Source of the DNA: Promethearchaeota archaeon
Lineage (GTDB): Archaea; Asgardarchaeota; Lokiarchaeia; Sigyniarchaeales; SOKP01
Length of the DNA: 16,416 bases
Direction: 5' to 3'
Assembly (NCBI GenBank): GCA_013375475.1
Contig: JABXKD010000078.1
Coordinates: 1-16,416, forward strand
Below the pieces are notes generated by a model, which searched no databases, was not told where the DNA came from, and saw only the letters and a program-made list of their open reading frames with translations. A program made the position numbers and the translations under genes. This document shows positions 12,715 through 12,795 of the stretch, piece by piece. Within the stretch, counting starts at the first letter, position 1. Each line of letters begins with the position of its first letter.

Positions 12715-12795
12715 GCCAGCGTATCCGAGTAGTTAAGGAGGCGGCCTGCAGAGCCGTTGCTTTCAGCATCGAGGGTGCAAATCCCTCCGCTGGCT
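12715..12795 (+). tRNA. tRNA-Cys (GCA), intronless, with long variable arm; CCA not encoded
   Basis: Acceptor GCCAGCG/CGCTGGC; D stem TCC/GGA; anticodon stem GCGGC/GCCGT with loop CTGCAGA (GCA at 12748-12750); 13-nt variable region; T stem GAGGG/CCCTC with loop TGCAAAT; discriminator U; 53 nt upstream of cysS. Confidence 0.93.

Follow-up and report, generated by a model that had tools for sequence, protein, structure and literature searches.

An Asgard tRNA-Cys with a class II-sized variable arm and an A18/G55 elbow

The window analysed here, the complete 16,416-nt contig JABXKD010000078.1 of a Promethearchaeota archaeon (Lokiarchaeia; assembly GCA_013375475.1), encodes a tRNA-Cys with anticodon GCA next to cysS, the gene for cysteinyl-tRNA synthetase (CysRS). 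This tRNA-Cys is a known molecule in a variant form for which the evidence is good. Its function is, by inference, ordinary, but its architecture is unusual on two counts: the variable region contains a long extra arm, and the G18-U55 contact of the elbow is replaced by A18 and G55. It is probably a single functional tRNA-Cys that comes from an ordinary class I ancestor, keeps the arm in its mature form and is charged by the adjacent CysRS.

Descent of the tRNA and maintenance of its arm

ARAGORN calls tRNA-Cys(gca) at 12715-12796 as the sole tRNA of the window. The Rfam model RF00005 covers 12715-12795 end to end (model positions 1-71) with 54.9 bits against a gathering score of 29, and 9-10 nt of the variable region are aligned as insertion. 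Cys-specific covariance models score the gene with 92.8 bits (R1) and 74.3 bits (R2). The acceptor stem is GCCAGCG/CGCUGGC (7 bp), the T stem GAGGG/CCCUC (5 bp) and the anticodon loop CUGCAGA; there is no intron, and CTT follows directly on the 3' side, so CCA is not genome-encoded. The D stem consists of UCC/GGA, that is three pairs, with a G13.A22 mismatch, and the D loop is AGUAGUUA. ARAGORN, RF00005 and the sequence thus agree with the initial annotation of an 81-nt tRNA-Cys that lacks CCA and has intact GCA and U73. Its statement that both partners of the G18-U55 contact are altered, by AG in the D loop and TGCAAAT in the T loop, can be read directly in the sequence.

To follow the descent of the gene, its 81 nt were compared by BLAST with 61 related genomes, and the loci were extracted and aligned. 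The genus of the window holds two forms of tRNA-Cys, one of 80-81 nt with the arm and one of 73 nt without it. In the 73-nt same-genus orthologues UAUUC replaces U-GCUUUCAGCA-UC of the window and the rest of the molecule is identical; where the variable loop of the short form has AU, the long form has an 8-nt hairpin core. Model R2 was trained on 28 short-loop tRNA-Cys, all of them arm-less and all from outside the window's genus, in other genera and families. Among the tRNAs of the genome it gives the window tRNA 74.3 bits, the runner-up 46.1 bits and the Leu/Ser tRNAs 28.9-33.2 bits. Since a short-loop model places the window tRNA so far above the Leu/Ser tRNAs, and since its body is that of the 73-nt orthologues, the proposal of a class II tRNA with switched anticodon and discriminator is rejected. 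The competing proposal of the same annotation, gain of an arm within the lineage, is supported by the near-identical 73-nt orthologues and by the CysRS tree described below.

The three-pair D stem had been likened to that of tRNA-Leu and tRNA-Ser. The stem is indeed present, but the likeness is not telling, because the same stem with G13.A22 is common to arm-less tRNA-Cys, the 73-nt relatives included, and to distant Asgard tRNA-Cys. It evidently characterizes tRNA-Cys in this lineage and does not mark class II. Of the marks of class II tRNAs, the molecule has a variable region longer than 10 nt that forms a stem-loop (13 nt, with 4 bp and a 3-nt loop). It has neither a Leu/Ser body, nor A73 or G73, nor class II descent, as seen from U73, the 73-nt Cys orthologues and the R2 scores. 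By these comparisons the window tRNA is an ordinary class I tRNA-Cys by descent. The arm can fairly be called class II-sized, because the variable region of the genome's own tRNA-Leu(CAG) is 14 nt long.

The minimum free energy (MFE) fold of the window tRNA (-32.5 kcal/mol) is a cloverleaf with a 4-bp extra arm. An alignment of 28 distinct arm-bearing 3' halves reveals 100% standard pairing of cells at each of the four positions of the stem. The first pair is UA in 24 variants and UG in 4, the second GC in 27 and GU in 1, the third CG in 25, UA in 2 and GC in 1, and the fourth UA in 17 and CG in 8, with 3 rows gapped. Two pairs therefore show two-sided changes and the other two wobble-compatible changes. 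When the partner was shifted by 1-3 columns as control, pairing dropped to 37-72% of cells. Arms read UGCU-UUC-AGCA, UGCU-UUU-AGCG, UGCU-UUUC-AGCA, UGCU-AUUA-AGCA, UGCC-AUUA-GGCA or UGGC-UUC-GCCA, and further UGC-GCAA-GCA, UGC-GAAA-GCA, UGCC-GAAA-GGUA, UGUC-GCAA-GACA or UGUC-AUCC-GACA; their loops include the GNRA types GCAA and GAAA. Fold and covariation together confirm the 4-bp stem TGCT-TTC-AGCA that had been noticed in the variable region.

A tree was constructed from 44 Asgard CysRS sequences whose genes adjoin a tRNA-Cys. Of its 19 arm-bearing genes, 18 group in a single clade with a support of 90 in SH-aLRT (the Shimodaira-Hasegawa-like approximate likelihood ratio test), and the arm label needs at least three changes. 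Identity to the window CysRS ranges within the arm clade from 96% to as little as 64%. Complete pairing with compensatory changes, together with the single clade, leads to the conclusion that the arm is, by all signs in these sequences, inherited and has been held as a helix over a long time.

The initial annotation had asked if this is the only copy of tRNA-Cys. Searches of the whole assembly with R1 and with R2 each gave one strong Cys-like match, and a U55-type tRNA-Cys pattern had no match in the window's genome (G000), which leaves a single tRNA-Cys in the assembly. Two further "Cys" calls of ARAGORN, whose intron mode is noisy on this genome, were discarded: one is a tRNA-Pro(GGG) with an intron and the other a spurious call with an 825-nt "intron". 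Among the ARAGORN-predicted tRNAs of the genome, UGCAAAU is the only T loop that is not of UUC type. The cysS gene starts 53 nt 3' of the tRNA and is the only CysRS match of the genome. Neither SepRS nor SepCysS was found over cut-off in G000, where SepCysS (TIGR02539) gave a 30-bit match only.

Elbow and arm types across the order and the Asgard archaea

The order was surveyed with model R1, which matched in all 151 genomes, and the best tRNA-Cys-like locus was fetched wherever the score was good. This yielded 120 parsed loci from 117 genomes; the remaining genomes, with weaker matches only, were left out. A18/G55 with the arm was found at 52 loci (46 parsed automatically and 6 by eye, five of the latter with an anticodon-loop intron and one with a D-loop intron), A18/G55 without the arm at 40 and G18/U55 at 15. 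Twelve loci read as C18/U55 and one (L122) is ambiguous. Two of the C18/U55 reads adjoin D-arm introns; L123 is likely a misread G18, and L118 appears to read C18 like other CCG forms. The arm is present in four genera of the window's family (f1) and throughout a second family of four genomes. As to the suspicion that a long-arm tRNA-Cys might be a documented norm of the lineage, the arm is common in the order but was found in no paper searched.

At all 92 G55-type loci of the order A18 accompanies G55, arm or no arm, and U55 occurs with G18 or C18. A G55-type pattern representing the 3' half of tRNA-Cys was run on 400 Asgard genomes and matched 135, compared with 2 matches for the reversed pattern. 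Distant families are among them (f26 2/3, f27 3/4, f31 group 56/89). From these, 16 matches were fetched; apart from one truncated at the end of its contig and one that proved not to be a tRNA, all 14 have AG at positions 18-19. The distant-family G55-type matches all have short variable loops, and hairpin arms are confined to f1 and f4. The U55-type pattern matched 83 of the 400 genomes, none with a hairpin arm.

Comparison of these loci indicates that in Asgard tRNA-Cys A18/G55 replaces the G18-U55 contact with strict covariation and leaves G19-C56 untouched. By the same evidence the swap does not depend on the arm and is not peculiar to the window gene, and it appears much older than the arm, being a trait of tRNA-Cys across many Asgard lineages. 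Together with the fixed R57 and A58, G55 makes positions 55-58 read GNRA, and it may take over the turn-forming role of U55. No mention of an A18/G55 elbow in tRNA-Cys was found in the literature searched, and the portions consulted of three papers concerning Asgard archaea and tRNACys (PMC5424206, PMC9499178, PMC8762117) contain none of the structural terms on variable arm, T- or D-arm or elbow that were looked for in each.

A third elbow state, C18 with a normal U55 T loop, occurs at L095-L100, L103, L106 and L109 (g18), L102 (f3) and L118. Because this state also exists, the G18-U55 contact seems generally relaxed in tRNA-Cys of this order. At L135 (CAZBNW010000034.1), a C18/U55-type tRNA-Cys about 60-180 nt upstream of its cysS has an insertion in the T-stem region in which the 5' half of a G55-type T arm (stem and UGCAAAU) is repeated. 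The arrangement looks like the replacement of one T arm beside the remnant of the other. CCA is genome-encoded at L101, L114-L116 and L215-L229, comprising some relatives and the readable f26, f27 and f31 loci fetched; it is absent from the window gene and its close kin.

Many genomes of family f1 carry a second, canonical tRNA-Cys with G18G19, a UUC T loop and the acceptor GCCAGAG/CUCUGGC, which is not beside cysS (examples are L111 at G007:C15:51188-51259, G019:C2:86649-86721 and G032:C56:22095-22134). Carriers of this second copy have SepRS in 11 of 12 cases in genus g1, 5 of 5 in g18 and 4 of 4 in g19. Among arm-bearing f1 genomes SepRS exceeds the cut-off in 2 of 51 (G116, G123) and a second U55-type tRNA-Cys is present in none of 51; among arm-less A18/G55 genomes of f1 the respective numbers are 30/36 and 23/36. 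These counts represent clades rather than independent samples and are uncorrected for phylogeny; a second CysRS tree from loci of the surveyed genomes, meant for independent contrasts of arm and SepRS, had 26 usable rows, 25 of them from one genus, and was dropped. Completeness does not explain the contrast, because SepRS is missing in 11 arm-bearing g1 genomes rated 97-100% complete (G000, G002, G005, G008, G012, G014, G015, G016, G034, G035 and G098). A simple phylum-wide rule, according to which G55 marks genomes with CysRS only and U55 those with SepRS, fails: f19 is U55-only without SepRS, and f26 and f27 combine G55 with SepRS.

Additional SepRS fragments are found in arm-bearing G135 (truncated, with a stop) and in arm-less G013 (at a contig end). 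Truncated SepRS genes with in-frame stops lie at G135:C13:4-870 and, in two pieces, on G045:C1, also arm-bearing; those of G135 and G045 may be relics of SepRS loss. The CysRS that accompany arm-bearing tRNAs belong to two lineages with a mutual identity of only 41% (G087:C28:232883-234271 and window 12849-14294), which would be expected of an enzyme that does not read the arm. The g18-type CysRS gene is not beside tRNA-Cys. In a pattern-seeded search, the nearest non-Asgard relatives of the window CysRS were bacterial (Clostridium, Desulfarculus; 40-48% identity).

Proposed explanation and its alternatives

We propose that an 8-nt insertion into the variable loop of a class I tRNA-Cys created the hairpin of 4 bp and 3-nt loop, which is of the size class of the genome's own tRNA-Leu arm. 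The mature tRNA would retain the hairpin as an extra arm and would be charged by the class I CysRS of the downstream gene via GCA and U73, which are strong CysRS determinants in the systems studied, according to the part of PMC9976931 consulted. The helix would be maintained because the tRNA core would suffer from an insert without structure; compensatory changes are then explained without any function, since an inserted hairpin must remain a hairpin. As is generally known, the variable region points to solvent when a class I synthetase binds tRNA and to the protein when a class II synthetase does. From this geometry the arm should be harmless to CysRS, which would leave it to solvent, and awkward for the class II SepRS. 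Tolerance of the arm would also be eased because the lineage no longer has SepRS or a second tRNA-Cys. This steric view fits the enrichment of the arm in lineages that lost both.

One alternative for the arm itself is its removal during maturation, as a mini-intron or by other processing, so that the mature molecule would be a normal 73-nt class I tRNA-Cys. This is suggested by introns that interrupt orthologues of the same tRNA at six or more positions: acceptor/D, D loop, 32/33, 37/38, variable/T stem and T loop (for example in L013, L015, L018, L023, L027, L030, L101 and L106), often at different sites within one genus. True variable-region introns exist in the relatives L106 and L109, and removal of 8 nt would leave UGAUC or UCAUC, 5-nt loops that both occur in relatives. 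According to the sections consulted of a recent preprint (10.64898/2026.10.13.758758), many Asgard tRNA intervening sequences are missed by annotation and only 21% of those in the variable region fit the canonical bulge-helix-bulge (BHB); its census threshold is 10 nt, and "Cys" appears nowhere in the main text. Following the methods of this preprint, we coded the BHB as a 4-bp exon-intron central helix with two 3-nt bulges and a further helix on one side or both (hBHBh', hBH or HBh'). An unrestricted scan proved too permissive, as tRNA helices give many matches; instead, every segment whose removal leaves a variable loop of 3-6 nt was evaluated in 20 distinct sequence contexts. The same code recovers canonical BHBs at real introns of orthologues (L018 16-44, L038 38-57, L092 38-56), yet 19 of the 20 contexts contain no canonical BHB at the arm, and the lone match (hBH) is not conserved. 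The only 4-bp helix on offer is the stem of the arm; taken as central helix it has no flanking helices, and C48 would be deleted. Moreover, covariation supports the hairpin itself and not an exon-intron helix, and the insert of 8-9 nt is shorter than the census threshold cited. Contigs from public RNA libraries lack a joint across the arm, though they could not demonstrate the absence of one. Removal of the arm is thus quite unlikely, and its retention in the mature tRNA is very probable.

It is far less probable still that the window tRNA is a Leu/Ser-like class II tRNA in which anticodon and discriminator were exchanged, or that SerRS or LeuRS cross-charges this tRNA-Cys to an appreciable extent via the arm. 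The variable region of 13 nt, close to the 14 nt of tRNA-Leu, and the D stem of three pairs speak for such a relation; the body shared with 73-nt orthologues, D-arm features common to arm-less forms and the R2 scores speak against it. In addition, archaeal LeuRS and SerRS use A73 and G73, and the different U73 argues against cross-charging. As this is the sole tRNA-Cys of the genome, substantial mischarging would hit the whole proteome. Unlikely too, to a lesser degree, is a role of the arm, perhaps also of A18/G55, as a discriminator, either as an anti-determinant against the SepRS/SepCysS route or as a feature read by CysRS. The order would then, in a history that we consider doubtful, have ancestrally run two insulated systems in parallel: CysRS with an A18:G55 tRNA-Cys, often beside cysS, and SepRS/SepCysS with a canonical G18:U55 tRNA-Cys. 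The elbow and later the arm would have served as discriminators, and the window lineage would be an end state that kept the CysRS system only. If true, there would be two natural, mutually orthogonal tRNA/synthetase systems for one amino acid, set apart by the exchange of a tertiary contact at the elbow pair that is conserved best among tRNAs. Such a history is consistent with the co-occurrence of the second tRNA-Cys and SepRS in f1, with six genomes that lack CysRS, have SepRS and give no G55-type match (G025, G036, G128, G070, G137, G118), and with the coexistence of arm, SepRS and a U55-type copy in f4. It also has a precedent in Methanosarcina mazei, whose SepRS and CysRS prefer different tRNACys isoacceptors, as stated in the part of PMC9976931 consulted. 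On the other hand, the arm is not needed for coexistence, since most genomes with both systems carry an A18/G55 tRNA that has no arm, and it is commonest where SepRS is gone and nothing is left to insulate against. Further, A18/G55 is the only type found in the large family f31, which has no SepRS, and U55 the only type in f19, likewise without SepRS; CysRS, with matches in 337 of 400 Asgard genomes, is almost universal among those sampled.

Several points weigh against the explanation by an inherited, retained and tolerated arm. The MFE of the tRNA is modest in comparison with shuffles (z = -1.79). Few independent events underlie the SepRS association: a single clade in g1, another in g18, and part of g22. 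Arm and SepRS occur together in G116, G123 and f4 (full in G039 and G041, fragments in G045). Four arm-bearing g18 genomes (G065, G103, G115, G151), one of them 99% complete, have neither CysRS nor SepRS. Their tRNA-Cys (L066, L060, L069, L052) carry the arm UGCU-UUU-AGCG, their best TIGR00435 matches reach 36.6-40.8 bits, and the window's CysRS as query found no match in G065, G103 and G115; sister genomes with the same tRNA (G087, G096, G152) do hold CysRS. An assembly gap or a missing synthetase may be involved. The approach geometry of the synthetases is general background and counts as a weak point. Asgard tRNA genes are rich in non-canonical introns, which in relatives extend to the variable region (L106, L109), and the splicing enzyme of the lineage is uncharacterised. 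Finally, 14 public RNA runs were found (shares at most 0.29), with five contig pieces from libraries X1, X3 and X4 and none from X2. Record 1 of X1 covers the whole tRNA including the arm with genomic flanks, record 5 of X4 has a D-loop intron, and the X3 records come from relatives with other introns or arms. Since flanks or other introns are retained, the arm-bearing metatranscriptome contigs are precursor or DNA and not mature tRNA.

Genomic setting and comparison with known systems

The features of the tRNA-cysS pair are summarized in Table 1. The window is an entire contig (C264, 16.4 kb) of an assembly of 3.92 Mb in 288 contigs, rated 100% complete with 6.41% contamination. The pair is flanked by genes at 10971-11510(-), 11542-11877(-), 12045-12563(+) and 14310-14714(-), and the flanking products are a Gtr1/RagA-Arf-type small GTPase, an ArsR-type regulator, an Lrp/AsnC-type regulator and a Roadblock/LC7 protein. 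The Lrp/AsnC-type regulator, which has a Cys-rich C-terminal tail, sits immediately upstream of tRNA-Cys. The flanking genes are typical of the "eukaryote-like" signature genes of Asgard archaea. Contig C263 carries tRNA-Ile(GAT) at 3809-3882 and tRNA-Ala(TGC) at 3885-3957 with a 2-nt gap, as in the spacer of bacterial rRNA operons; this pair may be part of the 6.4% contamination.

Table 1. Coordinates of the tRNA-Cys gene, its parts and the neighbouring cysS gene in the window
Feature	Position	Strand	Basis
tRNA-Cys(GCA) gene, 81 nt, 7/5 acceptor/T configuration, U73, no CCA encoded	12715..12795	+	ARAGORN, RF00005, Cys models R1/R2
D-loop A18-G19, AG replacing usual GG	12731..12732	+	sequence; A18 accompanies G55 in relatives
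Anticodon GCA, then G37	12748..12750	+	sequence, ARAGORN
Variable region, 13 nt	12758..12770	+	MFE fold, covariation in 28 variants, missing from 73-nt orthologues
Variable-region parts: stem UGCU, loop UUC, stem AGCA, then UC	12758-12761, 12762-12764, 12765-12768, 12769-12770	+	
T loop UGCAAAU, G55 at 12777	12776..12782	+	sequence
Discriminator U73	12795..12795	+	sequence
cysS, cysteine--tRNA ligase, 481 aa	12849..14294	+	open reading frame; TIGR00435 (NCBIfam) 487.3 bits, cut-off 340

The contact between G18 and pseudouridine (Psi) 55 and the split into class I and class II belong to the most conserved features of tRNA. Here, an isoacceptor family of several Asgard lineages swaps G18/U55 for a strictly co-varying A18/G55, and within one order the same tRNA gained a maintained class II-sized arm and is still the sole decoder of Cys codons. 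The molecule offers a test case for the weight of the elbow pair in folding, in modification (Psi55 cannot form) and in contacts with the ribosome and processing enzymes. It is likewise a test case for the tolerance of a long arm by a class I synthetase and, where both enzymes are present, for the partition of tRNA-Cys genes between CysRS and SepRS. For annotation, tools that expect class I tRNAs of 70-78 nt or call every insertion an intron will mis-describe such genes.

The window tRNA resembles canonical archaeal tRNA-Cys(GCA) in GCA, G37, U73, G1-C72, 7/5 stems, G15/C48 and descent. It differs by a variable region of 13 nt with a 4-bp hairpin instead of a 5-nt loop, by A18/G55 instead of G18/U55 and by G13.A22. 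With class II tRNAs (Leu, Ser, Sec and bacterial Tyr) it shares a variable stem-loop of more than 10 nt between anticodon and T arms; in contrast to them, its body and identity elements are those of tRNA-Cys, the arm is a recent insertion within one order and the first pair of the arm uses U44. This nucleotide normally faces position 26. In comparison with archaeal non-canonical BHB introns, the arm is likewise an insertion relative to compact orthologues in an intron-rich lineage, but it is without BHB geometry, is only 8-9 nt long and covaries as a hairpin.

The only long-arm tRNA-Cys found in the literature searched is the bacterial selC* tRNACys. As described in the parts consulted of PMC5389517 and PMC7609411, these selC* tRNACys and allo-tRNAs likewise combine GCA, U73 and a long variable arm. 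They are bacterial, tRNA-Sec-like with 8/4 configuration and served by dedicated CysRS* and SelB*, whereas the window tRNA is archaeal and derived from normal tRNA-Cys; with an acceptor stem of 7 bp and a T stem of 5 bp, it shows neither the 8/4 nor the 9/4 configuration. In M. mazei, dual tRNACys isoacceptors are preferred by SepRS or by CysRS (PMC9976931, part consulted), and those relatives of the window genome that have both enzymes carry two tRNA-Cys as well. Unlike the M. mazei pair, the copies of these relatives differ by A18/G55 versus G18/U55, with or without the arm, and the window genome has one system only.

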